From an uncultured Chloroflexia bacterium (GTDB taxonomy: Bacteria; Chloroflexota; Limnocylindria; Limnocylindrales; CSP1-4): a DNA stretch of 64,000 bases. The translations under genes were made by a program, and so were the position numbers. Shown piece after piece: positions 9,984 to 31,075 of this stretch; position 1 is the stretch's first letter, and every line of letters starts with the position of its first letter. The stretch lies in contig OY970218.1 in assembly GCA_963713975.1 (NCBI GenBank), forward strand, positions 2,240,001-2,304,000, written 5' to 3'. The notes below the pieces were generated by a model. The model did not search any database. It had not been told where the DNA came from and worked only from the letters and a program-made list of their open reading frames with translations.

Positions 9984-10043
9984 CGGCAGCGGGCCCGACG
10001 TTGCTTCTGATGTATATGCCATGGGCAGAGGTATACTCCAGCG

Positions 10044-10256: not shown

Positions 10257-10645
10257 GATTCGTCGACACCTCCTATTGGGTGGCGCTCCGGCTGCGGCGT
10301 GATGCCAACCACGAGGCCGCGGACCGCCTGTGGTCGCCCGGCAAGGCGCTCCTGACGACAAACCACGTCGTCGGCGAGACGTGGACGTTCCTGCGCCGTC
10401 GTGATGGGCACGCGTCGGCCGTCGCATTCCTCGACGCGGTCGAATCCGCGGACTGGCTCGCCGTTGTGCACGTCGACGAGGGGATCGAGCGTGAGGCGCG
10501 GGCCTGGCTCCGACGTCACGACGAGCGGGTCTACTCGTTCGTCGATGCCACGAGCTTCGTCGTCATGCGCCGGGAGCGGCTCGGGGAGGCATTGGCATTC
10601 GACGGCGACTTCAGCTCGGCTGGCTTCGTCGAGGTGCGACCCTAG
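10253..10645 (+). CDS. vapC: PIN-domain toxin (VapC-like)
   Basis: FVDTSYWVAL, TTNHVVGETWT, YSFVDATSFVVM, AFDGDF acidic PIN residues. Confidence 0.9.
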   Translation: MRFVDTSYWVALRLRRDANHEAADRLWSPGKALLTTNHVVGETWTFLRRRDGHASAVAFLDAVESADWLAVVHVDEGIEREARAWLRRHDERVYSFVDATSFVVMRRERLGEALAFDGDFSSAGFVEVRP

Positions 10646-10696
10646 CCCCGAGCGTCGCGCGGACCTGCCGCGGCTAAGGGTCGCCTCGCCCGTACG

Positions 10697-12541: not shown

Positions 12542-13080
12542 GGCGCGATCCGTCCTGGGCGCGGCACGCCTGATCCGGGCCCTTCGAGCGCGGTGCGCAG
12601 GCGCGCGAGCGCAGATGCGAGACGGGACTTCACCGTGCCGACCGGGATCCCGATGGCGTCCGCGACGGCCTCGTGCGTCAGGTCGGCTCCGTAGTGCAGG
12701 GCGAGCACGGTTCGGTGCTCGACCGACAGCCGGGCGAGCGCGGCGGCGAGGTCAACGTCGCGCTCAACCCACGGGCGTGGGTCGAGCGACAGCGGCTCGA
12801 ACGGCAGGGGCTGGATCTCGTGCACGCGGGCGCCCCGACGGCGCCCGACGTCGCGGCAGCGGTTGACGACGATCCGGCGGAGCCAGGGTTCGAACCGCTC
12901 GGGATCGCGGAGCCTGGGCAGCTCGGACCAAGCCCGGACGAAGGCGTCCTGGGTCACGTCGCGGCCGTCCTCGGGACCAACGATCGACGCGGCGAGCCGG
13001 TACACCCAACCCTCGTTGTGTTTGACGAGTCGAGCAAAGGCATCCCGATCCCCATTCCGTGCACGGACGACGAGGTCCAG
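12538..13080 (-). CDS. ECF sigma-70 factor, probable CTG start
   Basis: Region 2 DVTQDAFVRAW...FEPWLRRIVVNRC and region 4 EAVADAIGIPVGTVKSRL. Frame continues upstream as LDLVVRARNGDRDAFARLV to a CTG 9 nt after GGGAGG, with an in-frame TAG just before. Confidence 0.88.
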   Translation of the reverse strand: MDLVVRARNGDRDAFARLVKHNEGWVYRLAASIVGPEDGRDVTQDAFVRAWSELPRLRDPERFEPWLRRIVVNRCRDVGRRRGARVHEIQPLPFEPLSLDPRPWVERDVDLAAALARLSVEHRTVLALHYGADLTHEAVADAIGIPVGTVKSRLASALARLRTALEGPGSGVPRPGRIAP

Positions 13081-13106
13081 CTGGCCGATCCTCCCTTGCT
13101 ATCCTT

Positions 13107-13131
13107 GACGCACGAACTGCTGAGATCGTTC
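13107..13131 (-). promoter_or_regulatory. ECF-type autoregulatory promoter GAAC-N17-CGTC
   Basis: Minus strand CCGAACgatctcagcagttcgtgCGTC directly upstream of the sigma RBS. Confidence 0.5.
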
Positions 13132-13508
13132 GGCTGCTCAGCAAAGCACACGGGGACGTCTGGGGAGGCTCCTAGCGTGCCGCGCGGTGGCGATGCGGGA
13201 CTCTGGGGTCGGACGGGCGCGGAGTGCCGGCTTCTCTCTTGCTTCGGGGCATCGCGCCGGACCCAGGTCGCCGTCATCGCGGAACGAGGCCAGCTGCTCG
13301 ACCTGCCTCAGCACCGCAAGGGCCAGGGTTCTCCCCAATGGCCGCCCGCCGCGCCGACGCGTACGGTTGAGCTCGTGATGGGGAACACGGGACCTCGCCG
13401 GCGGGGGGGGCCGGCGAGGCGCTCCTTGGTCACACTGGCAATCGCGTCGGAATCGAGCCATTCGGCCCCTCTCGCGCCCAGCGTGAGCCCGAAACTGTCT
13501 GGGTACAG

Positions 13509-16500: not shown

Positions 16501-16736
16501 CGGCGAGGTCGGTCGCCCTGATCGCGCCTCGCTCGACCAGTCGGGGCAAGGCCGAGGTGTGGATCGACGGGACGAAGGCCACGACGATCCGACTGAACGC
16601 CAACCCAACTGGTGCCCGACGCGTGGTCTTCACCCGGAGTTGGGGCTCCGCTGGGAGCCACCGCATCAAGGTCGTGGTGCTTGGAGCACCCGCCGGCTCT
16701 CGCGTCGACCTGGATGCGATTGTCCTGGTGGAATGA
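13509..16736 (+). CDS. Large secreted protein with ~8 Fn3/Ig-like modules and a C-terminal beta-sandwich
   Basis: Signal peptide (likely GTG start at 13551, VLRRLLPVATAALLIATLV...VAA); repeats of PxLxxPxDGAxV...LxWxxVxGAxxYxV; no catalytic motif recognised. Confidence 0.8.
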   Translation: MSRASAIQQQGVRTVLRRLLPVATAALLIATLVPVTAGPVAATDLAAPILLQPAPGASVNDTGVHFRWTRVSGAVSYRLHVWSVAEGEGFDLVETTANDDFVAFASIPTALLNWSVTSIDAQGNDGQTAASTFAPADPAPALLGPVDGTVVTYPDAGPQLRAWSRQAPPYYYFYDTDVAGQGDPMPDLGGTSAEPRLEPGTYRWTAGYPDQHHDHPVAAPVRTLTVEWPEATPQLLEPADGASVVAGDTAVLRWGSVPGAVAYEVQFDRGSGFDGQPVIGTPIPAFVLSDLWTAQTLRWRVRPTQTPAGFLWPVRGPWSEARTITVSAQGEITGLSPVDGAAVASWPVFRWDPLANASAYEVQFAIDPVTGPTQSRVINTPAFTLKANGDWLAQLAAGETWWRVRAVPVLSVGIASEWSSWRHVTVESADGVLGAPVAATGIGAAACPEGDACEPLTGWPILRWEPVRGAALYRVFLRHPLTASAYGYVDVAGAELVAGPLASQASDPGTSRALWSVVACPSLVDCPTEPVGAVYRVERSLPAPIPVNPGDDATVYHAGQVLTWLPVPSDLASGPDEVLPALTTCLETARTRDGGSTTTATRCSTATSTIVDLTDDAGVVEWRVRAEAGTTFLAEPGAWSARRSFRHAPPTPVLDSPVEGATVTGAPVLRWHAAPSEVQYGVDVIREDVHDAFGWNLAMRYGPGGATSIQTTTPLAPGAYLWRVTSGDNVATVGHFTVEGTTELPLIEPAAGAIVPADDVDLSWTEVPWARFYTVAIGSTPDFWGIDAVWWGTSPLPSLAVPVRLPEGPLYWRVCPMLDGLNASDCSATNQLAVGASEVRAMTVTSALSARDLAIPTSHGLLVQLRLNATMSSTGRVPLRVRWTSSDVGSGVDAQEIQVKQDDGSWQPAASGRLTGTASYLDLNLAAGHRYDLRVRATDLAGNIGDWASARISLRLRQETSSAWRWSGSWSRVRSTAASGGAFRRSTDRGATAKMTFTARSVALIAPRSTSRGKAEVWIDGTKATTIRLNANPTGARRVVFTRSWGSAGSHRIKVVVLGAPAGSRVDLDAIVLVE

Positions 16737-16993
16737 ACCCGCCGCCGACGGCCCAGCGCTTTGTAGATGCTCAGCCGCTGTCGGGCCTTCCCGGCGCCAC
16801 CCCCAGAAGGTCGCCCTCCGTCCCGCCGTCGGCGAGCCACATATGGGCGTAGGTGTGGCGGAACTGGTGAGGTGCAGGTTGGTGAGCCCGGCCACGGCGT
16901 GAGATAGGTCTTGATCGTGGCCGGGCTGCGGTCTACGGCGCGCAGGCTCAGGCGCCAGCTGTCGATGGCCGACCGGAGGTAGAGGTCCGGCAC
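16737..16993 (-). pseudogene. Tyrosine integrase relic with large internal deletion
   Basis: [26 protein letters not shown] joined directly to AVAGL...[21 protein letters not shown], both near-identical to the integrase at 29832-30779; ~600 nt missing plus frameshifts. Confidence 0.9.
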
Positions 16994-17024
16994 CCGGCCC
17001 CGCGCGTGGTACGGTTCCGGCCAC

Positions 17025-17063
17025 GCGGGAGTAGCTCAGCTGGCAGAGCGGCAGCCTTCCAAG
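17025..17063 (+). repeat. attL-like direct repeat: 39-bp 5' half of tRNA-Gly
   Basis: GCGGGAGTAGCTCAGCTGGCAGAGCGGCAGCCTTCCAAG is identical to 30906-30944 and ends one base after the anticodon loop. Confidence 0.93.
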
Positions 17064-17270
17064 TCTCCCGTTCCCGAGCGCTGTGCTCTGATCTCAGGAT
17101 TCCCCGTTCGCTGGCCCTGGTTCCGGGCGAATTTGGCGGTCTGGCCCACAGCGTGATAACAGGCCTTCAGCGCATAACGCGTTTTCGTCGCACAAGAGTC
17201 TGCGGGCGCCCATGACGATCTGGAGGGCTTGACAGGTCACCCTTGACGGTGCGCCCCGGACGGACCTCCG

Positions 17271-17930
17271 TTACTGTCCCGTGTTGGGCAGTCGAGGCGT
17301 GGGCGGGCGTGCTGTGGATCGGCCAGACCGTCGAAGCACGAGGGCCATGGCACCCAGTGCCCCCGTGATGAGAAACAAGAAGCCCGGCCACGGACCCTCC
17401 CGTGAGACGCGCTGGGCGCGCGCCGGAAATGCGTCCGTCGCCGGAAGCTCCGCGAGGGCGCGCACGCGGTTCTCCGACAGCTTCTGAACGCCCGGCATGA
17501 AGAACCGGTCCGGGCGACCCTCCACCCAGGCGACAGCGACGACTCGGTCGATCGATGCTCCTGGCTGGCCGGAGAACGCGAACGCCAGGACATCCCCGAC
17601 CTGCGCGTACAGTTCCGACTCGTCGCAGACCTTCATGACGTCTGCGAAGCGCGTCCCAGTCTCGACCCTGAAGCTCGCCGGGGCGTCACCACGCAGGACG
17701 TCGATCACGTCCACGCGGAACGTGGTCGTCTGCCCGTTGATCGGCATCACAAGGCTTTCGGCGACCCGGCCGAGGAGGATGGTCCCGGCCGCGGGCGCCA
17801 ACCTGGTGAACGCCGGCCAGCGGTCCGTCCTGGTGCACTCCGCATAGACGCCTGCGGTAGCGACCTGCGACGCAAGAGTCGCCAGGAGCATCGCCACGAC
17901 CCATCGAACCAGCCGACGCGGGTGCGTCAT
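17271..17930 (-). CDS. Secreted protein with LPATD motif + TM + basic tail (sortase-like anchor)
   Basis: GGAGGGAG RBS, signal peptide MTHPRRLVRWVVAMLLATLA, C-terminal ELPATDA...FLFLITGALGAMALVLRRSGR. Confidence 0.75.
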   Translation of the reverse strand: MTHPRRLVRWVVAMLLATLASQVATAGVYAECTRTDRWPAFTRLAPAAGTILLGRVAESLVMPINGQTTTFRVDVIDVLRGDAPASFRVETGTRFADVMKVCDESELYAQVGDVLAFAFSGQPGASIDRVVAVAWVEGRPDRFFMPGVQKLSENRVRALAELPATDAFPARAQRVSREGPWPGFLFLITGALGAMALVLRRSGRSTARPPTPRLPNTGQ

Positions 17931-17964
17931 GGATCTCCCTCCAGGGTGGTGCGTGGCCGGATGC

Positions 17965-19320
17965 CTACAGGCCACAGGTCGAGTCCGTGCACAGGGTGAT
18001 GGGCTCCCCGTACGAGCTCAACTTGGAGAACACCCACCCCATCGGCGAGTACCAGGCGCTGCCACCCGGCGGATTGGCGCTTGTTGAGTCGCTGTGGATC
18101 CCCCATGCCAGGGTCACGCCGCCGCTGGTCGTGAAGTACGGGGCTCCGCTGTCTCCCGGGCTGGCGTCGAAGTTGTCGACCCACTGGTGCTCGATGGCTG
18201 TGCCGTCGACGTCCTTGACCCTGTCTTCCAGCGTGAGGTTCCCGCACCAGAACCCGGTCGTCCTCCCCGATCGACAGAGATAGTCGCCCACGTTCTGGCT
18301 TGATGTCGTGACATAGCCCCCGACGGTGCGGATGTCATTCTCGCTCACGCCGAAGAGGAGATTGTCAGGGCCACTCGGGGCGGACATCGCGATCAGGCCG
18401 GCGTCAGCGTTGGACAAATTCCCATAGGTCTCCGTCCTCCCTGTTCCGATGTCGGTCCCGCTGTGGCGCCACATGCTGTTGAGCCCGCCGGTCGCGAGGG
18501 CCAGGCAATGACCGGCGGTCAGCATCCGATAGGTAGAGGTGCCCTGCCTGCGCACGACGAAGCCGGACGTGCAGATCGAGCTCGTATTGACCTGCTCGTA
18601 GATCTTGATGCCACCCTTCATGGGCCAGCAGTCGATGCGCGACAGGCACGCATCAAGGTGTGCATCGATTTCCTCCTCGACCGTCCCGACAGGACCGTAG
18701 CGGGATTGAAGCTCCGTGTCGGCCACCTCTGTCAGGCCGTTGACCCCCACCAGCACCTGGTTGTTGCGGATATCCAGACCCGCGCTCTGGATGTCGATGC
18801 CTGCTCTCGCGAGCTCGCCCCGCTCTCCCCAGATCGTGTGCTTCAACTGTTCCAGCTCGGCTCGAGCGTGACCGACTTCGACAAGGTCGTAGTCGACGCC
18901 GGGCGGCATGCGTTCCGCAAGGTCCGCCACCCAAGCTTGACGATCCTGGCCCGCGACCATGAAGACGGGCATTCCTCCGCGTTGCTGGTCCATGTAGACG
19001 CCCGCATACCCGTCGAGGTGGCTCGCGTATTCGATCACGGGATCAACCGCCAACTGGATCGCGATGCGTCGACCGATCTCCGCTGCCTCGGCCTCGGAGA
19101 GCGGGACGCCGTACTGGAGATCAGGGAAGGTCGAGTGGTCGGCGAAGGTCCCCCGAACAAAGTCCTCGTCCGACCGGAACCCCGCGGTCTCGCGGAACAC
19201 GATCGCCTGACCGACATCCGCCGCGGAAACTACGGTGTTAGCCAGTGCGCTGGATGGGGTACCGAACGACAGCGCCAAAGCCAGCAGGACGCCCAGCGGG
19301 CCCAAACGACCTTTCGGCAT
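17965..19320 (-). CDS. Secreted S1 (alpha-lytic/streptogrisin-like) serine protease with pro-domain
   Basis: Signal peptide; CTSGF, LTAGHC (His), DAG (Asp), CRSGRTTG, PGDSGAP (Ser). Confidence 0.92.
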   Translation of the reverse strand: MPKGRLGPLGVLLALALSFGTPSSALANTVVSAADVGQAIVFRETAGFRSDEDFVRGTFADHSTFPDLQYGVPLSEAEAAEIGRRIAIQLAVDPVIEYASHLDGYAGVYMDQQRGGMPVFMVAGQDRQAWVADLAERMPPGVDYDLVEVGHARAELEQLKHTIWGERGELARAGIDIQSAGLDIRNNQVLVGVNGLTEVADTELQSRYGPVGTVEEEIDAHLDACLSRIDCWPMKGGIKIYEQVNTSSICTSGFVVRRQGTSTYRMLTAGHCLALATGGLNSMWRHSGTDIGTGRTETYGNLSNADAGLIAMSAPSGPDNLLFGVSENDIRTVGGYVTTSSQNVGDYLCRSGRTTGFWCGNLTLEDRVKDVDGTAIEHQWVDNFDASPGDSGAPYFTTSGGVTLAWGIHSDSTSANPPGGSAWYSPMGWVFSKLSSYGEPITLCTDSTCGL

Positions 19321-19499
19321 GACCTCATCCCTCTTTCCTGGTCCGGACCTTTCGTGACGATGACGATCAGCTCGGCTCGCGTTCGTGTCGGCACGTCGGG
19401 TGGTCCCGGCTACCGTACGGCCCCCTGCTGCGCTCGGCCATTGGGGATTCGCCTACTGGGCGAGCCCGCCGGGATGTGCGACGGTCGTGCTCGCGTCGG

Positions 19500-20123
19500 T
19501 CAACGCCGCGGCCGCGGTTCGGGTGGGATGTCGAGCCAGCCCTCCCGCTCAACCCGCAGGGCGAGCTCGGTCCGGCTCAGCGCGCCGGCACGCGTGAAGA
19601 GGTGCGACAGGTGCACCTCGACTGTCTTGCGTGAGAGACCGAGGTCGGACGCGATCTCGTCGTTGGTCTGCCCGCGCAGCAGGCCCGCCAGGACCTGCCG
19701 CTCGCGGTCGGTCAGCGGCGCCCAGGCCGCGCCGCCGGGGTCCGCCGGGTAGACCCAGCCGCCCGCATGCACCCGGCGGACCGCGTCCACGATGGCGTCG
19801 GTGCGGGTCGTCTTCAGCAGGTAGCCGCCCGCCCCGTGCCGCTGGGCCGCCGCCTGGTACAGCGGGTGGTCGTACTGGGACAGCATCAGGAAGCGAGGAC
19901 CTGCCAGCGTGGCGCGCGCCTCGGCGAGGAGCTCGAGCCCGGAGCCGTCGGGCAGCCGGACGTCGCACACGACGATGTCGAACCGTGTTTCCGCCAGCAG
20001 CTTGCGGGCCTCCCCCAGGGTGTGCGCCGCCAGGACCGGACCGAATCCGTGTTCGGCCCGCAGACGCCCCTCCAGCCGCTCGGTCACGAGCGGGTGGTCG
20101 TCGACGATGAGGATGGCGATCAC
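19500..20123 (-). CDS. NarL/LuxR-family response regulator
   Basis: ILIVDDHPLV, CDVRLPDGSG, GYLLK, LTDRERQVL...TNDEIASDLGLSRKTVEVHL; GTG at 20123 overlaps the kinase stop. Confidence 0.92.
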   Translation of the reverse strand: MIAILIVDDHPLVTERLEGRLRAEHGFGPVLAAHTLGEARKLLAETRFDIVVCDVRLPDGSGLELLAEARATLAGPRFLMLSQYDHPLYQAAAQRHGAGGYLLKTTRTDAIVDAVRRVHAGGWVYPADPGGAAWAPLTDRERQVLAGLLRGQTNDEIASDLGLSRKTVEVHLSHLFTRAGALSRTELALRVEREGWLDIPPEPRPRR

Positions 20124-21730
20124 GGCCGGCTCCAGTCCAGGGTCACAAGCGTGCCCGTCGGGGATGCGGCCCCGACCGCCAACGCCGCACCGACCGACGT
20201 CGCACGCTGGTGCATCGTCGCCATCCCGAGCCTGCCAGCGCGGCGGGCCGCCCACAGGTCGTCCTGCCGGATGCCGCAGCCATCGTCCTCGATCTCCAGA
20301 CGCAGCCGGTCGGGCCTGACGTCCGCACGGACGGTGATGCGGCTGGCCGAGGCATGGCTGATGACGTTGCCAACGGCCTCCTGCGCGATCCGGAAGGCGG
20401 CCAATTCCACGTCGGCGGGCGGACGCTCGTGCCTGGTGAGCCCGGTAGTGTGGGTGATGTCCCCGGCGATCGCGACATCCGCGTCGAGGCGGATCCGCGT
20501 CTGATCGACGAGCCAACCGAGCGCGGCATCCAGGCCGAGGTCGTCGAGCACAGGCGGCCGCAGCGCCGCGCTGACCGCACGCAACTCCAGCCCCGCCTCC
20601 TCGAGCAGCGTGATCGCGTCGTCGGCCGACCCGCCGTCACGCAGGCCGGCCACGGCGGCCGCCAGGACCTGGACCGGGCCGTCGTGGATCTCGGCCGCGA
20701 GCCGCGCCCGCTCCTCCTCGGTGGCGGCCAGCGCGGCCCGGTCCCGTACGCCGTCCGTCACCAGGTGCTCGACAATCGAGGCCAGGCGGGCGCGCACGAG
20801 CACATAGGCGGCGCCAGCGACCATAGCCGCCGCAACGGCCATCGGGACCGGCACGGCCGCGAGTGCGACCAGCGTCACCGTCCCGGCGCCGATCATGACC
20901 GCAGCCAGGACATCGAGGGCGCGCGGCGGGTTCCGGGTCGCCGTGTCCGCCGCCCAGCGGCGCCACGGAGCGGCCACGGCGAACGCGGTCACCAACGCGG
21001 CCACGGTCGTGGCCACGCGTGCGGCATCCGCCACCTGATAGACCGGCAGGGCCGCAAACCTGGCGGCCGTCCAAGCGATCGCCCCGGCAGCGGCCGCAGC
21101 CGGGACGACGGGCCAGAACCGGTACCGGGCAGCACCGACCACAAGCCACGCCGCGCCGACGAGCGGGATCGCGGCGAGCAGGGCCGTGGATGCTATCGGG
21201 GTGTTCGTCGCCGCTACCGGAACGGCAGCGACGAACGCCGCAGCGAGTGCGGCCGCGACCGCGAGCTCCCGGCGCAGTGGCAGCAGGCCCACGGCAGCAA
21301 GACAGAGGAGCAGGGCGGCAAGGGCCACGGGCACGGTCTGGCGCAGGACCTGCCGCTGCCCGGGGCCGCCGGTCGCCAGGATCGTGTCCGGAGCCGGCGT
21401 GACCTCCACCCGCCAGAGCAGCGGGGAGTCGCCGTTGAGAAACGCGACGAGCGCCTGGCCCTGGCGGAGACCGGTGTTCCAGGCCTGCCCGCCAGGCAGC
21501 ACCCAGCCGACCTCGAGGCCCAGCGGCTCCACCTGCACGTCACGGAGCGGGACGCCATCCCCCGCCATCGTGAGCGCCCACAGCGTGCTCACCCCGGCCA
21601 GTCCCACCGCCGCTGGCGCCAGCCACCGGCCCGACCGGCGCCCCGTGGTCCCGGGCGGGCGCCCACGAGGCAACTCACCAACCCCAGCATAGGGATTCCC
21701 CCAATCGCCTCGCACCTGCCGCTCCCTCAT
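20120..21730 (-). CDS. Multi-TM sensor histidine kinase (HisKA_3) with PDZ-like extracellular segment, ComP-like architecture
   Basis: ERARLAAEIHDGPVQ, LRPPVLDDLGL, QEAVGNVISHA, DDGCG; N-terminal EVGWVLPGGQAWNTGLRQGQALV followed by several TM helices; start uncertain. Confidence 0.88.
   Translation of the reverse strand: MRERQVRGDWGNPYAGVGELPRGRPPGTTGRRSGRWLAPAAVGLAGVSTLWALTMAGDGVPLRDVQVEPLGLEVGWVLPGGQAWNTGLRQGQALVAFLNGDSPLLWRVEVTPAPDTILATGGPGQRQVLRQTVPVALAALLLCLAAVGLLPLRRELAVAAALAAAFVAAVPVAATNTPIASTALLAAIPLVGAAWLVVGAARYRFWPVVPAAAAAGAIAWTAARFAALPVYQVADAARVATTVAALVTAFAVAAPWRRWAADTATRNPPRALDVLAAVMIGAGTVTLVALAAVPVPMAVAAAMVAGAAYVLVRARLASIVEHLVTDGVRDRAALAATEEERARLAAEIHDGPVQVLAAAVAGLRDGGSADDAITLLEEAGLELRAVSAALRPPVLDDLGLDAALGWLVDQTRIRLDADVAIAGDITHTTGLTRHERPPADVELAAFRIAQEAVGNVISHASASRITVRADVRPDRLRLEIEDDGCGIRQDDLWAARRAGRLGMATMHQRATSVGAALAVGAASPTGTLVTLDWSRP
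21690..21705 (+). promoter_or_regulatory. 16-bp box YAGG.....CCCCAAT, candidate response-regulator site
   Basis: TAGGGATTCCCCCAAT; related copies at 13324, 19440 (minus), 21667, 22938 and 22960. Confidence 0.65.
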
Positions 21731-21768
21731 CGTGACCGCACGACCACCACCAGCCAGAGGGACCTACG

Positions 21769-22293
21769 ATGCAGCCTCGTACCAGCATGCTCGCACTTCT
21801 GGCCGCAGCCGTGCTGGCCGTCTTCGCGGTCGCGACCGGGACAGCGACCACGCGAGCCACCTCGACGCCGGCGCCGGTCGCCGACCTCGCCGGCGTGCTG
21901 ATCCCGATCGGCGAGGTCGCGGCCCACTATTGCCACGATCTCGACTACCCCCGCATCCACTGCTTCGCCCAGCCCGAGGAGCTCGAGTCCGCCGTCAGCG
22001 CGACCCAGACGTCGCGCACTCTTCAGGTCGCCGCGGGTGCGCAGTACATGAAGCTCTTCGACCTCGCGGGCTACACGGGCACGTACATCATCCTGTCGCT
22101 TGACTACAACGACCTCAGCACCATCGGCTGGAACGACCGGGCGAGCTCATACATCGGTGTCAACAACCTCGCCTTCGGCCTGTGGACGGCCTGGTACATG
22201 ACCGGGAGCGGGATCGTGGGCTGCTGCAACCAGCGGGCGTCCTCGCTCTCGTCCACCTTCGACAACCAGATCAGCTCGACGCAGTTGCGGTAG
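21769..22293 (+). CDS. Secreted beta/gamma-crystallin-like (peptidase inhibitor I36-like) protein
   Basis: Signal peptide; twin Greek-key-like motifs LFDLAGYTG...WNDRASSY and WYMTG...FDNQISS. Confidence 0.72.
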   Translation: MQPRTSMLALLAAAVLAVFAVATGTATTRATSTPAPVADLAGVLIPIGEVAAHYCHDLDYPRIHCFAQPEELESAVSATQTSRTLQVAAGAQYMKLFDLAGYTGTYIILSLDYNDLSTIGWNDRASSYIGVNNLAFGLWTAWYMTGSGIVGCCNQRASSLSSTFDNQISSTQLR

Positions 22294-22294
22294 G

Positions 22295-22696
22295 TCAGCA
22301 GGCGGGCGGCGGCGGCGAGGAGCCCGCCGGGTCGCCGGGCGGTGTCACGAACACGACCGCGAGGCCGGGCTCGAGCACCACATCCACGATGACGCCCTCC
22401 GGGACCGCGGTCACGACATCGGCGACCGCCGACCTGTCCTCGAGCGTGCGGACGACCCGCCAGTGCACCGCGAAGCCCGCCGATACCAGTGCCTTCTCGG
22501 CATCCCCCGGCGACAGGCGGGCCACGGCCGCGCAGTCCACGGGGGGCGCCGTTGGGGCCGAGGCGGCGCTCGGCGTCAGCATCACCGGGGTTGCGGCTAG
22601 CGAGCAGGCTGTCAGAAGCACTGTCGTGGTGAGCATGACGAGGATCCGACCCAATGAGCGCAGTGTGTTGGAAGGGTGACGGAGCCAGCGGGTCAT
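22295..22696 (-). CDS. Small lipoprotein
   Basis: Lipobox LLTAC, Pro/Ala linker, small globular domain ending in Cys. Confidence 0.65.
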   Translation of the reverse strand: MTRWLRHPSNTLRSLGRILVMLTTTVLLTACSLAATPVMLTPSAASAPTAPPVDCAAVARLSPGDAEKALVSAGFAVHWRVVRTLEDRSAVADVVTAVPEGVIVDVVLEPGLAVVFVTPPGDPAGSSPPPPAC

Positions 22697-22937
22697 GTGT
22701 CCGGAATCTACTCTAGGCGGTTCCTGCCCGGTTCCTTAGCTTATTCACTTCCCTGTCGGGCGCGCCAAACCACCCCGCCTCTTCCCGCGGTCGCCCCTGC
22801 TCCATGTCGATCCCCGCCCTATCGGCGGCGGCCTGATGTCGGACACGCTGCCACCGCAGGTGACGGTTGCACAAGCGAGTTGTGTGCAGTCCGCGTCTGG
22901 TCGTGCCAGGGCAGACACGCCCTGCAGTCGACGCCTA

Positions 22938-22975
22938 TAGGGTTCTCCCCATCCGGGGATAGGGGACTCCCCAAT
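22938..22975 (+). promoter_or_regulatory. Tandem 16-bp boxes, 22-bp spacing
   Basis: TAGGGTTCTCCCCATC and TAGGGGACTCCCCAAT upstream of the secreted gene at 23159. Confidence 0.65.
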
Positions 22976-23158
22976 TGCACACCACGGACGACGCGACGAG
23001 ACTCGCGATGGCTGTCCTAGGTGGGCACAACCTGATCATCCCAGCCGAGACGGACTCCCTCCCATGACCCCGCCATCGGGCGTCGGCACACAGGAAACGA
23101 CCGTCTGCAGCCGGCGCGGCCAACAGATACCGAGCCGCCACACGAAGGGAGCGCCAGC

Positions 23159-24001
23159 ATGAGACGTCATCGGTCGGTGTCTGTTCGCCTGCTCGCCGTC
23201 GTCGCCTCGGCCGTGCTGGTCTCCCAGAGTGCCGGAGCGACTCTCGCAGCAGGTCCGGCGGTCTCGCCGTCGCCTATCGCGACTGACTACCAATGGGCGT
23301 TCTGGGCGGACGGCCTCGCTCCACTCGCCAACGCCAAGCAGTGGGTGCTGCAGGGAACCAAACAGCCGTCTGGCGCGTGCGCCTATGACTATCCGACAGG
23401 CCCAACGGAGGTGCCCGCCGCCGGATGGGAGGCACGCAGCGTCGCCATCGACGTCGCGAACTGCGCGAAGCTTATTGAGGAGGGGCAGCCAACGGCATTC
23501 GCTGTCACCGAGAGAGGGCCGGGCACGTCCGAAGCTCTGACGGAGGGCAGCAGCGGAGTCGCGAGGACCCAGTCCGACGCCGCCGCAGCGACGAGCACGC
23601 GAAGCGCCTGGCAGAAGGTGACCTGGTACGACATCGTCAACCTGTGGCTCAACTACGACGTGACGCAGGTCACTTGGTCCTACAACGGGTCGTCGGTGAG
23701 CGCCGGATCCGTCCAAGGGTTCGTCGGCTGGCGCAGCGGCTCAGGCTGGGGCCTCGTCTACGCGCATCACGCCGGGTCCTACGGTGCCGGGAACTCATAC
23801 TATCTCGGCAACACGTGGAGCAAGATGGGCAACCCGATCTTCTGCCCTACGCCGCCGATCGTCTACACCGTGTATTCCTTCAATAAGGTGTGGGGGCATC
23901 CGAACGGGACGGCGACGCGCAGCCAGTCGAGCGACAGCATCGACGAGTGCCTGCCCTTCCACTTCGACATCCAGTCCGCGTACGGCACCTGGCCGGGATG
24001 A
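23159..24001 (+). CDS. Secreted hypothetical protein with aromatic/Gly-rich beta C-terminal domain
   Basis: AAGGGAG RBS, signal peptide ending ATLA, two Cys pairs, Trp/Tyr-rich strands (QVTWSYNGSSV, GWRSGSGWGLVY). Confidence 0.78.
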   Translation: MRRHRSVSVRLLAVVASAVLVSQSAGATLAAGPAVSPSPIATDYQWAFWADGLAPLANAKQWVLQGTKQPSGACAYDYPTGPTEVPAAGWEARSVAIDVANCAKLIEEGQPTAFAVTERGPGTSEALTEGSSGVARTQSDAAAATSTRSAWQKVTWYDIVNLWLNYDVTQVTWSYNGSSVSAGSVQGFVGWRSGSGWGLVYAHHAGSYGAGNSYYLGNTWSKMGNPIFCPTPPIVYTVYSFNKVWGHPNGTATRSQSSDSIDECLPFHFDIQSAYGTWPG

Positions 24002-24023
24002 GGTCGGCGGAGGGCCCGCGCCG

Positions 24024-24361
24024 GTGAGTCGTGCCCTGGTCCTCGGGCTGGTCGCAGGCGCGGTTGCCCCGCCCTCGTCTTCGTAGTCCTGCCCGTCATT
24101 GGGGTCCTGGCTGTCGGAGGGCTGCTCGTGGCCACGGCGCGAGGCCCTCGGCGATGGACGCTGAACGGAGCCCTGACTGGGCTTGGGGGCGTCTGGACCA
24201 TCCTCGCGGCCAAGGGGTTGGCCGATTGCGCCCCTACGGGTGACTGGTGTGGTCAGACGCCGTTGGTCCCCTTCATGGTGCTCGCGTTCGTCACGCTGGC
24301 ATGCGGCATCGCCTCGACCGTGGTGTCGCTTCGGCGATCCCGAACTCCGGACGGCCGGTAA
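24024..24361 (+). pseudogene. Small ~4-TM membrane protein with one frameshift (real or sequencing error)
   Basis: GGAGGG RBS + GTG; VSRALVLGLVAGAVA shifts at the C-run ~24067-24070 into ALVFVVLPVIGVLAVGGLLV...DCAPTGDWC...SLRRSR. Confidence 0.6.
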
Positions 24362-24531
24362 GGCCTTCGAGCGCACCGGCAGCCACCGGCGACAATGCGC
24401 CTTCCACTGGTGGCGTGGCCCATCGGACAGGCGCATGGGCGCGGCCTCCACGCCTCGAGTCGGAACGTCGTGCCGGCACCACGCCACTTGGTCAGCGTGC
24501 GCGCCCGCACGGGAGGCGTGAACAGGGCGCA

Positions 24532-25808
24532 CTACGCGCCCAGGAGCGCGAGCGGGACAACGCCGACGCCGTCCGGTCGCCGGTAGGCCGCCGGGCCGGT
24601 CGAGAGGATGACGGTGTGGAGCATCGCGTCGCCGGCGATCTCGCGGAGCCGTCGCAGCTGCCGAGCGTCATCGTCCCCGACCGCTCGGGCCGACTTCACC
24701 TCGATCGCCACGAACCGCCCGTCGTCCCGTCCGACGATGAGGTCCACCTCGCGCTCGCCACGCTGGGTGCGGTAGTGGTACACGCTGGCCTCGGCAGCCT
24801 GGGCGAAGACGCGAACGCACAGCGTGGCGAGCGACTCGAACAGCGCGCCAAGGAGCAGGTCCGGGTGCCGGATGCCCGGCGTCGCGGGGCCCGCAGCGGC
24901 GATCGCGGATGCGCCCACCCCCCAGGAGGCGCGCGGCGAAGGCGGGATCGGCGAGCTGGTGCTTCGGCGCCGCGGTGAGCCGGGCGAGGCCGGGCCGCGA
25001 CGGGAGCCAGCCGGGCACGGGCTCCACGAGCCAGAGCCGCTCGAGCACGTCGAAGTAGCGCTGGACGGTGGACTTGCCCGGCATCTCGCCCGCCGCCCCA
25101 GCGGTGGCGTCCCGGATCTTCTCGAGCGAGGCCGTCGTGGAGACGGCGGCGGCGTGCGCAGCGAGCCAGCGGTGGAGGGCCACGTGGTTCCGCAGGCGCT
25201 CCCCGCCAAGCTCGGTGTAGTCGTGGTCGATGACCTGGCCGAGGTGCGAGTCCAGCAGGGCTCTCGCCGTCCGGGCCGGCACGTCGGATGCCCGGGAGAC
25301 CCGACGCGGCGATCTCGGATGCGTAGTCCGACGCCCGCAGCGCGGTCTCGCCAGCAAGCGGCGGGCGGGACCCGGACAGCAGGGCGGCGAGGCTGACCGT
25401 GGGCGGCTGGACGCCGCGCTCAGCGAGGGCCATCGGCCGCATCCGCACCGACACGATCCGGCCCGTCCCGGGATGCGCCGGCCGGGCCCGCGGCACGGCC
25501 GAGCCGGTCAGGATGAAGCTGCCGGGCTCCGCGCCACGGTCGACGGCGGTACGCACCGCGTCCCAGACGTCCGGCACCAGCTGCCACTCGTCGATGAGGA
25601 CCGGCCGAGGGCCAGCCAGGGCGGCGGCCGGGTCCGCCTCCGTGGCGATGCGCGTGGCACGGTCGGCGAGGTCGTGCACGGTGCGGGCTCGCTCGGCCGC
25701 GGTCCGCGTCTTGCCGACGGCCCGGGGGCCCTCGAGGGCGACGGCCGCCGCGCCGGCGAGGTGGTCGTCCAGCTCGTCATCGACCAGCTGCCGCAGGTAT
25801 GGCCGCAT
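24532..25808 (-). pseudogene. AAA_14 ATPase + DUF4143 nuclease-like protein split over three frames
   Basis: GPRAVGKT, LIDEWQ, ILTGSA in frame 1; KHQLADP in frame 2; GALFES, EVDLIV, AIEVKS in frame 3; shifts near 25285 and at the 6-C run 24918-24923. Confidence 0.85.
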
Positions 25809-25866
25809 GGCGGATCCTCCAGGGCTGCCGAGGCGCGCATGTACGGCACGCGTCTGGCAGCCGTCT

Positions 25867-25929
25867 ACGGGACCGTTACGCGATGTTCAACAGGACCGTC
25901 TCGCGCCCATCAGCGGGACCATCCCGCGA
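25867..25929. repeat. Three imperfect direct repeats at 23-bp period
   Basis: ACGGGACCGTTACGCG (25867), ACAGGACCGTCTCGCG (25890), GCGGGACCATCCCGCG (25913). Confidence 0.6.
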
Positions 25930-26512
25930 GTGCGTGGGGGGTGGTGTGGCAGCAACCGCCGGGTGCAGGAGGCGCTGGCCGATCACCCTGGCCTCGGCGC
26001 GATCGGGACCCTCACGATAATGGTGGCATCCGCAGGTTCAGAACCCATTCGGGTTGGCGAATGCGACTTCGACGGCGACCGTACGCAACAGCCGTACACA
26101 TGCCCCCGCTCCGAGGGTCTTGTCCGCCGTAGTCTCGGGGCAGCGGTGACAGGCGAGGCGCCGGTCGTCGCGGGATCGTCCCCCGTGGGGCCGGCGGCGT
26201 GCGCTGCGGCCCGGCGGCACGGGGCCGCGGCTGGAGCCCCTCCGGCAGCCTCTGGGACCGCCCGTGACGCCGGCCACCCGCCCCCAGACCGCCCGCGTCA
26301 GGCCCAGGCGTCCGAAACACGGGTGCCCCAGGGCCCACTATGAGGTCGCCCACCATGCTGATGTCGTCCGCTCCCCACCACGCCACGTCATCCCAGCCCA
26401 TCCGGTCCCGCGTCCCTGACCCTCACCGGGTCCGCGACGGGGGCATCGGGTCCGGATCCCTGCCCCGGGTTCCGTGCGCGGGAACGCCCCCGGAGCCGCG
26501 GGACCCCACACC

Positions 26513-27412
26513 ATGATCGGGACGTTCCGTCCGGCTCCCCATCCCGTCAGGCGTCGGGTGCTCGATCCCGGGTTCCTGGGCATCCGCGACCGCGCGGTCC
26601 TCGAGCTCCTCCATCGCGCCGACGTCGCCACCACCGGCCAGCTCGTCACCCTCGTCTACCGCCGCCGGCAGACGGCGCAGGAGCATCTCGTCGCGCTGTA
26701 CCGCGCGGGCTGGATCGAGCGCGCCGTCCTGCCACCGACAACCCGGGGTGGTGCCCCACTCGCGTTCCGGCTCTCCGCCCGAGCCCGTCGCCGCCTGGGT
26801 CTCGGTCCCCTCACGCGCGGACGCGCGGGCACGCAACTGCGCCACTCGCTCAACGTCACCGAGACCGTCGCCACCCTGGTCCGCATGGATCCAGCGGGCA
26901 CGATGTCCCACCCCGTCCGTGCCTGGCTCCCCGAGCGCGCCGCCGCCAAGGTCGGGCTGCGCGACGTGTTCCCCGACAGCATCGTCGCACTCGCCTTGCC
27001 CACGGGCTCGGCCGTCCTGTGCCTCGAGATCGACCAGGCCACCGAGCACGCCCCGGTCATCCGCGCCAAGCTCGCTCGCTACGAGCCGGCGCTGCGCAAC
27101 CGCCATGGCTGGGGCGTCCTGTTCGTCGTCGAGTCGCCGGTCCGCGCCGCCTATCTCGCGCGGGTGGGGCGCGAGACCGAGTGCGCCCATCGCCTCATCG
27201 GCAAGGCCTGGGTCACGGTCCTCGGCGACCTCGCGGCCGAGGGTCCTTCCGCCACGCTGCGCCAGATCACCCCGGGCGGCGGACGGACCACCCTCGCCGC
27301 GGTCCTGCACGACCCTCGGCCACGCAGATGCTCGACACCCGTCGGGAGCGACGCGTGGATCGAGCTGCTCGCCTTTGGCGGCGCGGAGGACACGGCCGAG
27401 GCGCTCGCGTGA
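26513..27412 (+). CDS. Replication-relaxation (Replic_Relax-like) family protein
   Basis: RDRAVLELLHRADVATTGQLVTL wHTH, HSLNVTE, PDS...LEIDQATE...IRAKLARY, VLFVV pattern typical of this family. Confidence 0.78.
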   Translation: MIGTFRPAPHPVRRRVLDPGFLGIRDRAVLELLHRADVATTGQLVTLVYRRRQTAQEHLVALYRAGWIERAVLPPTTRGGAPLAFRLSARARRRLGLGPLTRGRAGTQLRHSLNVTETVATLVRMDPAGTMSHPVRAWLPERAAAKVGLRDVFPDSIVALALPTGSAVLCLEIDQATEHAPVIRAKLARYEPALRNRHGWGVLFVVESPVRAAYLARVGRETECAHRLIGKAWVTVLGDLAAEGPSATLRQITPGGGRTTLAAVLHDPRPRRCSTPVGSDAWIELLAFGGAEDTAEALA

Positions 27413-27627
27413 CGGGGGTTGACCCGGCACCCGCGCCGCCGGAACTGCGAGCCAGGGGTCTCGCCGCAGCCCCGGTCGCCCTCAACCCGAGCGTCGTCCG
27501 GACGACCGTTGGCGGCGTCCTCGTGGACCCCGCGACCCGCCCCTGCCCGGTTCCGGTCGGCTCTGACGTCTGGCTGCGGATGCTGGGCACCGGGCGCGTC
27601 GAGGTTGACGCGGAGGCCCTGTGGTGA
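27409..27627 (+). CDS. 72-aa protein paralogous to the C-terminal tail of the relaxase
   Basis: GTGA overlap; TTVGGVLVDPATRPCPVPVGSDVWLRMLGTGRVEVDAEALW aligns with relaxase TTLAAVLHDPRPRRCSTPVGSDAWIELLAFGGAEDTAEALA. Confidence 0.6.
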   Translation: MTGVDPAPAPPELRARGLAAAPVALNPSVVRTTVGGVLVDPATRPCPVPVGSDVWLRMLGTGRVEVDAEALW

Positions 27628-27884
27628 GGCGCGAGTCGCTCACCCCGTCCGAGCGGGTTATGCGCGCCCGGATGGCCGCGTACACGCTCCATGCCCGCCA
27701 CGACCCGCGCGAGACGACGAAGGCGGCGCGGCGCGCCTTCAACCAGCGCTTCCTCGACGAGGTCGACCCCGAGCGCTGTCTCCCAGGGCCGGAGCGTCTC
27801 CGCCGCGCCGACGCCGCGAGGCGGGCATACTTCACGCGGCTGGCCTACCTGTCGGCGCGGAAGCGGCGAAGAGCCAGCGGGTGA
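27621..27884 (+). CDS. Small basic helical protein of integrative elements
   Basis: LTPSERVMRARMAAY...RFLDEVDPE...ERLRRADAARRAYFTRLAYLSARKRR; resembles hypothetical proteins of actinobacterial integrated elements (recalled, not searched). Confidence 0.7.
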   Translation: MVRRESLTPSERVMRARMAAYTLHARHDPRETTKAARRAFNQRFLDEVDPERCLPGPERLRRADAARRAYFTRLAYLSARKRRRASG

Positions 27885-27897
27885 TCCGCAACTTGAT

Positions 27898-28734
27898 TTA
27901 CGGTTCGGCGGGGGAGAGACGCCGCAGGAGCTGCTCGACGCGGGCGAAGGCCAACGCCTGGACCCGATCGGCCTCCGGGCTTCCCAGCGGCACCCTCCGG
28001 TACATGGCGACACTCGCCGGTCCGATCGCGTCGATCGAGGTGAACTTGTCCGCGAGGATGCGCACGGCCTTCATCACGGGGTCGACGGCTGCCATGGCGG
28101 CGATCCCGGCGGCCACCTCGCCGATGCCGATGTGGCTCAAGAGATAGTCGATGTCGTACGCGTCCTTCGGCTTGTCGCGCTGGCCCATCGCGAGCGCCTT
28201 CAGGATCACGAGCGCCGACGGTGTCGCGACACGGACGGAGACCCGATTCTGGCGCCCGTCCGGCAGCAGACCTGCGATCTCCTGATCGACGAAGGCGGTG
28301 CGGACGAGCTCGGCGCCCTCCGTCCGCCGCGCCAGCGGCTCGCCGCCGATCCGTTCGTGGCGATGGCCAGCCCCGCCCCGGGGCGTGACTGGGGCGAGCA
28401 GGTCAACCTCGACATCGATCGTCCGCTCGTCGAAACGGACCGACCGCAGCCACCGGAAGGGCTGGTCAAGCTGGGTGTAGCCGCGATCGCGGAGGAGCTC
28501 GGCGATCGTCCGATAGGCATCGTCGGGGACGCCGATCGGGTCGACCACCAGGTCGACATCAAGCGTACCGGCGTAGGGATCGTCCGGCTGGTCTCCGGTG
28601 AGCAGTGGGGGAGCGCTGCCGCCGACGATCGTCATCGCGTCGGCGAAGCCCGCCAGGATCGTCCAGAGCTCGAGCAAGACGCGCTGCGCCGCTACGACCG
28701 ACGCCGGGTCGTCGCGGGGATCTACCGCGGCCAC
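27898..28734 (-). CDS. AbiEii-like nucleotidyltransferase toxin
   Basis: IVGGSA...GTLDVDLV NTase motif and LKALAM..RDKPKDAYDIDYLL; GTG 28734 overlaps the antitoxin end. Confidence 0.82.
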   Translation of the reverse strand: MAAVDPRDDPASVVAAQRVLLELWTILAGFADAMTIVGGSAPPLLTGDQPDDPYAGTLDVDLVVDPIGVPDDAYRTIAELLRDRGYTQLDQPFRWLRSVRFDERTIDVEVDLLAPVTPRGGAGHRHERIGGEPLARRTEGAELVRTAFVDQEIAGLLPDGRQNRVSVRVATPSALVILKALAMGQRDKPKDAYDIDYLLSHIGIGEVAAGIAAMAAVDPVMKAVRILADKFTSIDAIGPASVAMYRRVPLGSPEADRVQALAFARVEQLLRRLSPAEP

Positions 28735-29768
28735 AGCTCGCCTCGTTCGCGCATGAAGGCGGCCGCCTCGGCGGAGGCACCGCCTCGCCGGACGAGATCC
28801 ACGTACAGCTGCGGCCGACTCGCGAGCATCAGGCCGTCGCGTTCGAAGCTGCCGTCGAGGGCGCCGCCGTCTGTCGGCCGGATCAGGATGACATTCCCGC
28901 CGCGCGCGACCGGTGTGAGCTGGAGGGCTTCGTCCCATGGTGCGAAATCGGTGACGTACAGCTCCACGCGGGCGAACCGAGTGAACGGCGCGAGCCGATC
29001 CGCGGCGGCCTCAGCCGTGATCGCATAGCGCGGCGGATCGTCCAGCGCGCGGATGGCCCTCAGGATCGCCTCCGGGCCGCCGATGATCGCGACATGCTCC
29101 AGGATGGCATCACCGGGCGCGGGAGCCGCCGCCCAGGCCTTCAGCAGGGCGTCGCGATCGCTGAGGCGGCTCGCTCCCCGCGCTCGATCGAGGTACGCGT
29201 TGCGCGCCAGCGTCTTGAAGGTCCGGCTCACGAAGCCCTGCGTGAGGCCCGTGCGGGCGGCCATGTCGGCGAGGGTCCATGAGCGATCGGGCTGGATCAG
29301 CAGCCAGCGCACGACTCGGAGGGCGGCGCCTGAGAAGGGGTCGGCGACGTACCGCGTGCCCGGCGCATCGGCGTCGCGGCGCGTCGGCCGGCGGCCCAGG
29401 CGCTCGATGAACAGGCTCCCGAGCACGATCCGACAGTCGCCGTCGGGCTCGATCCAGCTGATGCCTGCGTCTTGGAGGATCTCGCGAGCGCGCGCGCCGA
29501 GGACGGGCGCGACGAGGATGGCCGCACCGCATCGCTGGAGCCAGGGAACGAGCCGCGCGACCACGGCGGGCTCGGCCCGAGCCTGGAACTCCACGCACGC
29601 CGTCGACCGTTCACCCGAGGGCGCGGTCAGATCGAGATAGGCGTCGGTCCTGGCGTCCGCAGATCCATCGCCCGATCGCACGGCCATCGCCCAACCCGGC
29701 GGAAGGATGGCCCCAACAGCCTGTTCGAAGGCTTGTGCAAGCGCGGGATTGAGTTGCAGTTCTACCAT
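28722..29768 (-). CDS. AbiEi-like type IV antitoxin / regulator
   Basis: Central HTH WTLADMAARTGLTQGFVSRTFKTL, YAITAEAAA, GGNVILIRP, ASRPQLYVDL..RGG..AEAA. Confidence 0.8.
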   Translation of the reverse strand: MVELQLNPALAQAFEQAVGAILPPGWAMAVRSGDGSADARTDAYLDLTAPSGERSTACVEFQARAEPAVVARLVPWLQRCGAAILVAPVLGARAREILQDAGISWIEPDGDCRIVLGSLFIERLGRRPTRRDADAPGTRYVADPFSGAALRVVRWLLIQPDRSWTLADMAARTGLTQGFVSRTFKTLARNAYLDRARGASRLSDRDALLKAWAAAPAPGDAILEHVAIIGGPEAILRAIRALDDPPRYAITAEAAADRLAPFTRFARVELYVTDFAPWDEALQLTPVARGGNVILIRPTDGGALDGSFERDGLMLASRPQLYVDLVRRGGASAEAAAFMRERGELWPR

Positions 29769-29831
29769 TGCTGGCTACTGTACCACAGCGGTATATATAG
29801 GTACTCCAGTAGATGTCCAGTCCTGACGACG

Positions 29832-30779
29832 CTAGATCCGATCTCCCGGGCTCCGCTTCCGGTATGCCTCACGTGCCCGCTCGTCGGCCGCCGAGGCGCC
29901 GTAGCGGCTGAGCATCTGGCGGCTCTTCCAGCCGGCGAGGCGCATGAGGTCGCCCTCCGTGCCGCCGTCGGCGAGCCACATGTGGGCATAGGTGTGGCGG
30001 AACTGGTGGGGGTGGAGGCTGGGCAGCCCGGCCACGGCGCCGCGGCGCCTGAGCACCTGGAGGACGCCGCTGTCGGTCAGGACCCCGCGGGCGCCCAGCC
30101 ATAGCTCGTCGCGGCCGGCCTGCGAGTGCGACGCGCGGGCCCGCAGGTAGCGATCGATCGCCTGGGCGGTCTTGCTCCCGAACGGGCAGGCCCGGGGACG
30201 GCGGCCCTTGCCCAGCACGATCGCCACCCCCTCGTCAAGATCGACGTCCGCCAGGCGCAGGCCCGTGATCTCGCCCCGGCGCATGCCGGTGTCGAGCAGC
30301 ATCCGGACCAGGGCGGTGTCTCGCCGGGCTTCGAAGCCCGTCCCGGCGCAGGCGTCGAGGATGGCCTTGATCTGCTCCGGTCGCAGGATCGGCGGCGGTT
30401 CCTCGGGCACGATCGGCGGGGTCATCCTGGCCATCGGTGACTCGCGGACCTCGTCCTCCGAGACGGCCCACTTCCAGAACGCCTGCAGGCAGCGGTAGGC
30501 GAGTGAGACGGTCGCGGGTCGTGCCCCGCCGTCCTGGAGGGCAACGAGGAAGGCCTCGATGTGCTCGCGCCGGAGCCCCTCGAGCGAGGCGGGCATGCCG
30601 CGCTCGGCGAGGAACGCATCGAACCGGGTGGCCGCGTCGAGATAGGTCTTGATGGTGGCCGGGCTGCGGTTCGCAGCGCGCAGGCTCAGGCGCCAGCTGT
30701 CGATGGCGGACCGGAGCCCGAGGCGTGGCGGCCCGGCCGCCTCCGTTATAGTGGTCCTGGTGCTCGTCGGTCTGACCAC
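29832..30779 (-). CDS. Tyrosine recombinase/integrase (intact)
   Basis: DTGMRRGE (R), GKG (K), HQFRH (HxxR), AGW, SRY (Y); divergent from the tRNA. Confidence 0.95.
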
Positions 30780-30905
30780 GGGTTCTGCGTCCTCAGCGTA
30801 ATATTGCGCTCATCGGGAACTCGAAACTGGTGAGAGTTATACGCTGCGAGAGCGCTGTGGTCAAGCCGGAATACAGTTAGACGCTGTAGTGGAGCACGAA
30901 ACCGA

Positions 30906-30981
30906 GCGGGAGTAGCTCAGCTGGCAGAGCGGCAGCCTTCCAAGCTGCATGTCGCGGGTTCGATCCCCGTCTCCCGCTCCA
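30906..30981 (+). tRNA. tRNA-Gly (TCC), CCA encoded
   Basis: 76-nt cloverleaf: acceptor GCGGGAG/CTCCCGC, anticodon arm GCAGC-CTTCCAA-GCTGC, T-loop GGTTCGATCC. Confidence 0.97.
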
Positions 30982-31075
30982 ACCCCTTTCCCGATGACGC
31001 CCGATGACGCCCGAGCGCGCCCGCGGAGTCGGCGGACCGACTAGCCTTGTGCGAGTCGCAGGGAGGAAGGTCGTC

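Follow-up and report, generated by a model that had tools for sequence, protein, structure and literature searches.

A bacterial element of reversed orientation that recombines with the 5' part of a tRNA gene was reportedly described by Zhao and Williams in 2002, to judge from the title of that paper and from citations of it. In other published accounts, islands with this layout form a minority: the Islander survey lists 159 islands with a 5' fragment of the tRNA gene among 3,919 (PMC4383910, Table 1), and integrase-tRNA pairs in divergent orientation are rare in a set of 1,273 (PMC2951348). The pTN3-like integrases of archaea use the 5' half of a tRNA gene as their host attachment site (attB), and the restored tRNA is transcribed from a promoter of the element, an arrangement seldom met in bacteria (PMC8371274). 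The locus described here lies in a window of 64,000 nucleotides (nt), the whole stretch of DNA that was analysed, from an uncultured Chloroflexia bacterium (assembly GCA_963713975.1, contig OY970218.1, positions 2,240,001 to 2,304,000). It contains an integrative, probably mobilizable element (17025..30944) whose attachment site (attP) carries nt 1-39 of tRNA-Gly(TCC) and which restores the 5' half of that gene. The layout of the element is that of a known minority class, and the rarity to which an earlier note on this DNA had pointed would be overstated as novelty, the layout being already catalogued (PMC4383910, Table 1; PMC8371274); the new part is a putative promoter for the tRNA that lies antisense within the integrase gene.

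ARAGORN calls tRNA-Gly(TCC), at 30906-30981 on the + strand, as the sole tRNA of the window. Nucleotides 1-39 of the gene are present twice as a 39-bp direct repeat (17025-17063 and 30906-30944, 100% identical), and the left copy is the only end-fragment of tRNA-Gly(TCC) in the 3.62-Mb genome (blastn E 8.5e-16). This fragment is co-oriented with the intact gene and lies 13,881 bp upstream of it, which is the arrangement by which Islander recognises islands of this kind. The left copy (17025..17063, + strand) is the core of the left junction (attL), a displaced half gene that ends one base beyond the anticodon loop; the right copy is the core of the right junction (attR), where ARAGORN and genome comparison place the 5' half of the element and the 3' half of the host in one restored gene (30906..30981, + strand). 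Prediction gives an excised circle of 13,881 bp with an attP core that forms an imperfect 11-6-11 dyad (8/11) around TTCCAA and is centred on the anticodon loop. To the right of the left copy, the P' arm (17064..17180, + strand) comprises a core-type half site GTCTCCCGTTC, a conserved stretch GAGCGCTGTGCTCTG and, at 17149 and 17168, inverted repeats of CAGCG; it is conserved across an alignment of 13 left junctions and has a putative binding role. CGCTG repeats of the P arm lie at 30841, 30852 and 30881. The stretch TCTCCCGTTCC that follows the left half could in principle be a remnant of the tRNA acceptor 3' strand that forms a mini-tRNA, but it has no CCA, is variable among relatives and is explained equally well by the dyad symmetry of the core.

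Between the two junctions, a XerC-like tyrosine integrase of 315 amino acids (aa) is encoded on the - strand (29832..30779), divergent from the tRNA and with its start 126 bp from it. The gene is whole, with a SAM and a catalytic domain (PF00589, E 4e-25, 89 bits) and the catalytic residues R167, K191, H258, R261, W284 and Y293, and its product scores below the XerC, XerD, XerS and integron cut-offs. The start codon is supported by an alternation of GTG and ATG at one position among homologs.

Comparison with relatives reveals the site before insertion; G labels denote genomes of relatives and L labels denote loci, and the two sets overlap partly so that their counts are not additive. Seven relatives (G002, G003, G005, G008, G013, G015 and G017) have an empty site, in which the tRNA gene is intact and an extended -10 box lies 8-9 nt upstream, and neither the integrase nor the 5' half was found in the fetched stretch of any of the seven. 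The same motif at the same spacing is present in the window as TG-G-TACGGT (17007..17015, + strand), 9 nt ahead of the displaced half gene, and again ahead of the left half copy in G007, the left junction of which matches that of the window at 20 of 21 nt. Because the empty-site box recurs before the left half copy in the window and in G007, the host promoter is stranded at attL, and because it now stands 13.9 kb upstream, before a half gene, the tRNA requires a promoter of the element. The integrase-side spacer is joined to tRNA-Gly in 15 of 70 genomes of the genus, and related elements differ in cargo and form tandem arrays in G066, G059 and G009; in G060, attL sits on another contig. Gly-TCC is a single-copy gene among 52 ARAGORN calls in the genome, and by standard wobble rules GGA is read by tRNA-Gly(TCC) alone; the gene is therefore the only source of a GGA reader in the cell, where GGA accounts for 6,925 of the 89,026 glycine codons of long open reading frames (ORFs) of high GC content at third codon positions.

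Much of what the earlier note had read from the letters is borne out by these results: the duplication of tRNA nt 1-39 upstream of the intact gene, the divergent integrase, the dependence of the tRNA on the element and the presence of glycogen genes on both sides, with glycogen phosphorylase and GH57 to the left of the accessory region and glgA at 31004 to its right. The uniqueness of the Gly-TCC gene, which it had asked to have checked, is confirmed. Features that it did not contain are an integrase remnant at 16763-16990, the host promoter at 17007-17015 and the accessory nature of the block between 10 and 17 kb.

The account favoured here, with a probability of about 0.72, is that an attP carrying tRNA-Gly nt 1-39 would have recombined with the host gene, probably at the anticodon loop. 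The host promoter and host 5' half would thereby be pushed to the left end, and at the right end the 5' half of the element would become continuous with the host 3' half, as the anatomy and the empty sites indicate. Transcription of the restored tRNA from an element promoter would follow as a logical requirement, and that promoter is most likely a host-type extended -10 box, G-n-TATAGT, which judging by its conservation would act antisense from integrase codons 10-11 and give a leader of ~147 nt. Mobilization, finally, would be by the relaxase of the element together with a helper.

The element shares with the 5'-fragment islands of Islander a tyrosine integrase aboard, a co-oriented upstream 5' fragment, an anticodon-centred site, a length within 2-200 kb and tandem arrays (PMC4383910). 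In its accessible part, the Islander account counts such islands and gives neither promoter location nor integrase clade, whereas one clade with 14 anticodons is described here (PMC4383910). With the pTN3-like elements, it has in common an attB in the tRNA 5' half and an element promoter for the restored tRNA, but pTN3 has its attP within the integrase gene and integration splits this gene, and transcription of the tRNA starts from the promoter that serves the integrase and runs in the direction of that gene (PMC8371274). Unlike these suicidal integrases of the pTN3 and SSV type, the integrase here remains whole and is transcribed away from the tRNA, with the proposed promoter inside the gene on the opposite strand. 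Actinobacteriophages with tRNA-dependent lysogeny likewise make the host rely on the element for an essential tRNA; there, however, the host gene is lost to the phage, which brings a complete tRNA of its own, whereas here a hybrid is rebuilt at attR and no second copy is present (PMC10865867). Known elements with a PF13814 relaxase resemble the element in combining an integrase with this relaxase and in lacking mating-pore genes, but the two from streptococci encode a serine integrase together with a VirD4 coupling protein, where the present element has a tyrosine integrase and no coupling protein. Replacement of the 5' end and promoter of a host gene is also known from SXT/R391 at prfC. Islands associated with dusA are like the element in the same respect (PMC4482086). 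Both differ from it in having protein-coding targets and integrases of different families. No description of a tRNA promoter inside an integrase gene was found among the titles and abstracts of the papers listed by literature searches, and two papers of 2002, one by Williams and one by Zhao and Williams, may cover it.

The host tRNA promoter form G-n-TAnnnT occurs within ~64 nt upstream of 31 of the 52 tRNA calls, compared with 1.5% of random windows. The promoter proposed for the element (30745..30752, + strand) conforms to it, reading G-T-TATAGT in the window, and is antisense to integrase codons 10-11 (ACT ATA), 153 nt before tRNA nt 1. Of 24 aligned spacers, 22 retain this box and the remaining two have an offset box. 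Its middle varies between subclades (TATAGT, TACGAT, TACCAT) while the G, TA and T are constant, and the encoded residues change (Thr-Ile, Ile-Val) despite the constancy of the box, which is moreover written in rare codons (ATA is 0.7% of Ile codons and GTA 1.75% of Val codons).

The distribution of the motif was followed across the integrase clade. From 128 homologous loci, 83 were used after removal of 34 in which the upstream DNA was insufficient or the match short, and of 11 near-duplicates (>=97% identity). Among the 83, an upstream divergent tRNA is present at 57 loci, which cover 14 anticodons and 10 amino acids; the tRNA is codirectional at 17 loci and absent at 9. The survey of homologs called for in the earlier note thus finds the same orientation at 57 of 74 tRNA-adjacent loci. 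An antisense motif within integrase codons 1-21 is present at 39/57 divergent, 2/17 codirectional and 0/9 tRNA-less loci, against a background of 14/679 gene-body windows. When the 25-member main Gly clade is left out, the motif is still present at 16/32 divergent loci compared with 2/17 (90-nt window; Fisher p 0.012, for kin that are not independent). An element at tRNA-Val(GAC) (L114, extended by L159) repeats the full design with a 42-bp 5' fragment 13.2 kb away, and fragments running from nt 1 to the anticodon loop recur at other tRNAs (Arg 1-38, Val 1-41 and 1-42). Divergent loci with flanks of 5 kb or more number 18; no 3' fragment was found beyond the integrase at any of them, and one of two codirectional loci with sufficient flank has such a fragment. 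On a FastTree phylogeny whose deep nodes are weak, parsimony requires at least six changes of orientation, and a flip at Arg-TCT separates L202 from L271/L273 with a support of 1.00. Beside a distant integrase at L116:2480-2603, tRNA-Thr(TGT) is followed by an inverted copy of its nt 12-38.

Natural deletions bear on the same box. It is retained in 5/5 truncated integrases beside an intact tRNA (G006, G007, G010, G043 and G069) and absent from two displaced integrase remnants. The integrase start codon is gone from G043 and G069, which have nevertheless kept TATAGT, and the spacer of G043 differs at 24 of 47 conserved A/T positions. In G012, G043, G051 and G069, the continuous DNA from glgP to the tRNA contains no left half gene or host promoter, and because these are gone the four genomes need the element promoter. 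Relatives also show the loss of everything but the right end of the element. The idea in the earlier note that imprecise loss would be penalised holds for deletions of the right end, which would cost the cell its tRNA, but not for precise excision or recombination between the 39-bp repeats, either of which restores the host promoter.

The repeat could in principle be a chance or recombinational duplication of a tRNA half, with the intervening genes being ordinary accessory DNA. Consistent with this, there is no shift in GC content (0.706 inside the element, 0.708 outside), and G012 and G051 keep the backbone genes while lacking the left repeat. Genes without repeats in relatives are, to the letter, what the earlier note had named as telling against an insertion, but their state in these two genomes is read as decay, since other relatives have both repeats or an empty site. 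The duplication is contradicted already, and is most improbable, because repeats with exactly these boundaries, from nt 1 to the anticodon loop, are found in many genomes and also at other tRNAs, the site is bordered by an intact integrase and both copies by conserved arms, and some relatives have an empty site. A less remote, but still unlikely, alternative accepts the same element and has the tRNA driven from the spacer, by TACAGT (30872..30877, + strand) or by TACGCT at ~30840. TACAGT, which the earlier note had proposed as the -10 box, is present where it was placed, 28 nt before the tRNA and hence within the range of host leader lengths; TA...T is kept there in 14/24 spacers, and some elements (L170, L182) have extra G-n-TAnnnT boxes in the spacer. 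However, in this genome TACAGT lacks the G at -14 that is a feature of host tRNA promoters, it is mutated at five loci (L105, L108, L109, L115, L139) and in three genomes (G006, G043, G069), and it overlaps a conserved attachment-arm repeat, of which the spacer alignment suggests that it is more likely a part. G043 and G069, in which no host promoter remains, have no TAnnnT at this site, and L113 has lost most of the spacer including TACAGT and retains the intragenic box. Judged on conservation, the intragenic TATAGT is the better candidate, and the function assigned to TACAGT is probably wrong.

Several observations weigh against an insertion driven from an intragenic promoter, in addition to the uniform GC content and the two genomes without a left repeat. 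No attP/attB junction was found in four metagenome assemblies, which hold relatives only and in which the contigs of relatives break within the repeat, and most related elements have no relaxase. Among the sequencing runs listed, none was of RNA and none shared more than 12% of the sequence words; like the missing junctions, this is uninformative on expression and excision. The 153 nt between box and tRNA far exceed the usual 6-50 nt of the host, there is no -35 box, and a generic sigma-70 and terminator scan gave no matches. The first integrase codons are AT-rich and rich in rare codons (AGA, AGG), and A-ending codons make up 24/72 of Ile/Val codons in the first 25 integrase codons against 13/662 later, so that part of the motif enrichment may reflect translation initiation. 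Beyond the main clade, 16/32 divergent loci have no box in the tested window, the starts there being estimated, and the orientation classes come mostly from tRNA-integrase adjacency, with 5' fragments in 6/18 divergent loci that have at least 5 kb of flank. Retention of the integrase 5' end in truncated copies is partly geometric, since this end is nearest the tRNA, and the decay statistic from a single genome is weak by itself.

If the intragenic promoter is used, it may also silence the integrase. The predicted leader of ~147 nt (30759..30905, + strand; fold z -4.3, weak covariation) would run opposite the start codon of the integrase and its ribosome-binding site (30790-30794) and would include the P arm; head-on tRNA transcription over this region, or the cleaved leader acting as an antisense RNA in the manner of IS10 RNA-OUT, would then repress the gene. 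The leader as predicted spans integrase codons 1-7 together with the ribosome-binding site, 5/7 copies tested fold well (z -2.8 to -4.3) with the ends of the leader paired, a conserved inverted repeat spans the integrase start codon, and a conserved TAnnnT was found neither in the P' arm nor in the spacer read on the integrase strand. The other two copies fold no better than shuffles (z -1.2, -0.5), only 4/38 consensus pairs show two-sided changes, the leader has no Rfam match and attachment arms are inverted repeats for DNA-binding reasons anyway. Repression by either route is speculative, and that the promoter is real and also silences the integrase is a tentative proposal that stands at clearly less than even odds.

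To the left of the element, the window preserves part of an older one. A remnant of a related integrase (16763..16990, - strand; 81-92% identity to the intact gene by BLAST) lies just left of the repeat; it is internally deleted, so that aa 18-49 adjoin aa ~257-283 and the C-terminal region, lacks codons 1-17 and is joined directly to the host promoter, the fusion being within ~10 nt of the expected position of the intragenic box. Beyond it is an older accessory block (10044..16736, between DUF6544 and the host promoter) with a RHH-PIN pair, a Kelch protein with an ECF sigma factor and a large fn3/Ig protein. The block is absent in G013 and G007, where the DUF6544 gene runs straight to the tRNA promoter. 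Its left end was not recovered; to the left of 16990 the search yielded neither a degenerate third half gene nor a P' arm (best 22/39), and a 9-nt match at ~9982-9990 is too short to be meaningful. G066 and G009 contain integrase-less cassettes that have the P' arm of the family and end in a compact promoter and tRNA half, and one cassette of 8.7 kb has near-identical ends in the two genomes. Illegitimate excision joining the integrase 5' region to the host promoter is hypothesised to yield such cassettes. In G066, four tRNA-Gly 5' halves and the intact gene lie in tandem (C6 ~60500-77200, L092), most units end in a compact promoter, and no integrase was found in the fetched stretch of the array.

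Taken further, the integrases may constitute a Chloroflexota-centred clade that inserts 'backwards' and keeps a tRNA promoter antisense in its first codons. The tRNA transcript would then make the integrase 5' end undeletable and repress the integrase, excision would be tied to the growth-rate control of the tRNA, and the integrase-less cassettes would have arisen by collapse and been moved in trans, so that the site would act as a tandem array for gene capture. This wider scheme is possible but doubtful.

The remaining genes of the element are partly shared with its relatives. The cargo at 17271..25808 is not common to related elements and includes a trypsin-like protease, a LuxR response regulator with a histidine kinase, ORFs without assigned function and a split AAA_14/DUF4143 gene (PADLOC PDC-S01-like; 24532-25808) that extends over three reading frames, through either a frameshift or a sequencing error. 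A Replic_Relax relaxase (PF13814; 26474..27412, + strand) matches Pfam above the cut-off (E 1.7e-12) as well as phrog_9381, and among the related elements examined has homologs only in G012 and G051. Scans against Pfam, NCBIfam and PHROGs gave no mating-pore or phage structural genes among the element ORFs, several of which have no family; a weak match to P-loop_TraG lies elsewhere in the genome. From this gene content, the element is probably mobilizable via its relaxase with a helper. An AbiEi/AbiEii-like type IV toxin-antitoxin pair (27898..29768, - strand) follows, with AbiEii above the Pfam cut-off (E 3e-5), AbiEi_2 below it (E 0.002) and a weak PADLOC match; the gene order fits an AbiEi regulator followed by an AbiEii nucleotidyltransferase. 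Such a pair also lies beside the integrase in G012, G020, G041, G054, G059, G060 and G084, and is a more direct candidate for maintenance of the element than promoter dependence.

Variants of the site were seen in other genomes. In G059 (C1 ~1364220-1364300, L080), two head-to-tail 5' halves form a 38-bp tandem duplication at attL, and a second integrase remnant is fused to a P' arm inside the element. In G014 (C16:102694-104780, L048), tRNA-Gly(TCC) is split into nt 1-40 and 39-76 by a 2-kb insert with WD40-like and protease-like ORFs, and no intact copy is present in this genome, which is 71% complete. At the start of G006:C19 (L049) and at L110, one pair of the anticodon stem is U-A in the 5' half on the element side; in G006 this pair matches the host 3' half, which suggests that elements may have to fit the tRNA allele of the host. 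Fragments of the 3' kind lie downstream of the same tRNA-Gly(TCC) in L111, L182, G001, G018 and G008, showing that ordinary 3'-type elements also use it, and L111 and L182 have both kinds. In G000, upstream of tRNA-Ala(GGC) (C1:566960-567078), GAGCACGAAACC is accompanied by an arm-like stretch; this sequence is exact at two places only, before tRNA-Ala(GGC) and before tRNA-Gly(TCC), and no tRNA-Ala 5' fragment was found for the site, which may be a vestige of a related 5'-type element. Probable other islands on the same contig lie at 1729737-1730940 and 2571574-2571619, and include two tRNA-Arg(TCG) 3' fragments ~26 kb downstream of their gene and, for tRNA-Gln(CTG), a 3' fragment that lies upstream of the gene in inverted orientation. 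Within the window, an Rfam search gave the tRNA and one chance snoRNA match, and tandem repeats at 55238-55309 (36-bp unit) and 2732-2793 (18-bp unit) are probably coding linkers.

The boundaries of the element, the empty site, the stranded host promoter and the single-copy tRNA are shown by the comparisons above, and the locus offers a located and testable answer to how such elements compensate for the host promoter that they displace. The natural deletion series shows the promoter being domesticated, and a clade with orientation flips provides material for testing the role of anticodon stem-loop symmetry in the reversal of integrase targets. If the antisense coupling is true, it would represent a new mode of integrase regulation through an essential host RNA.

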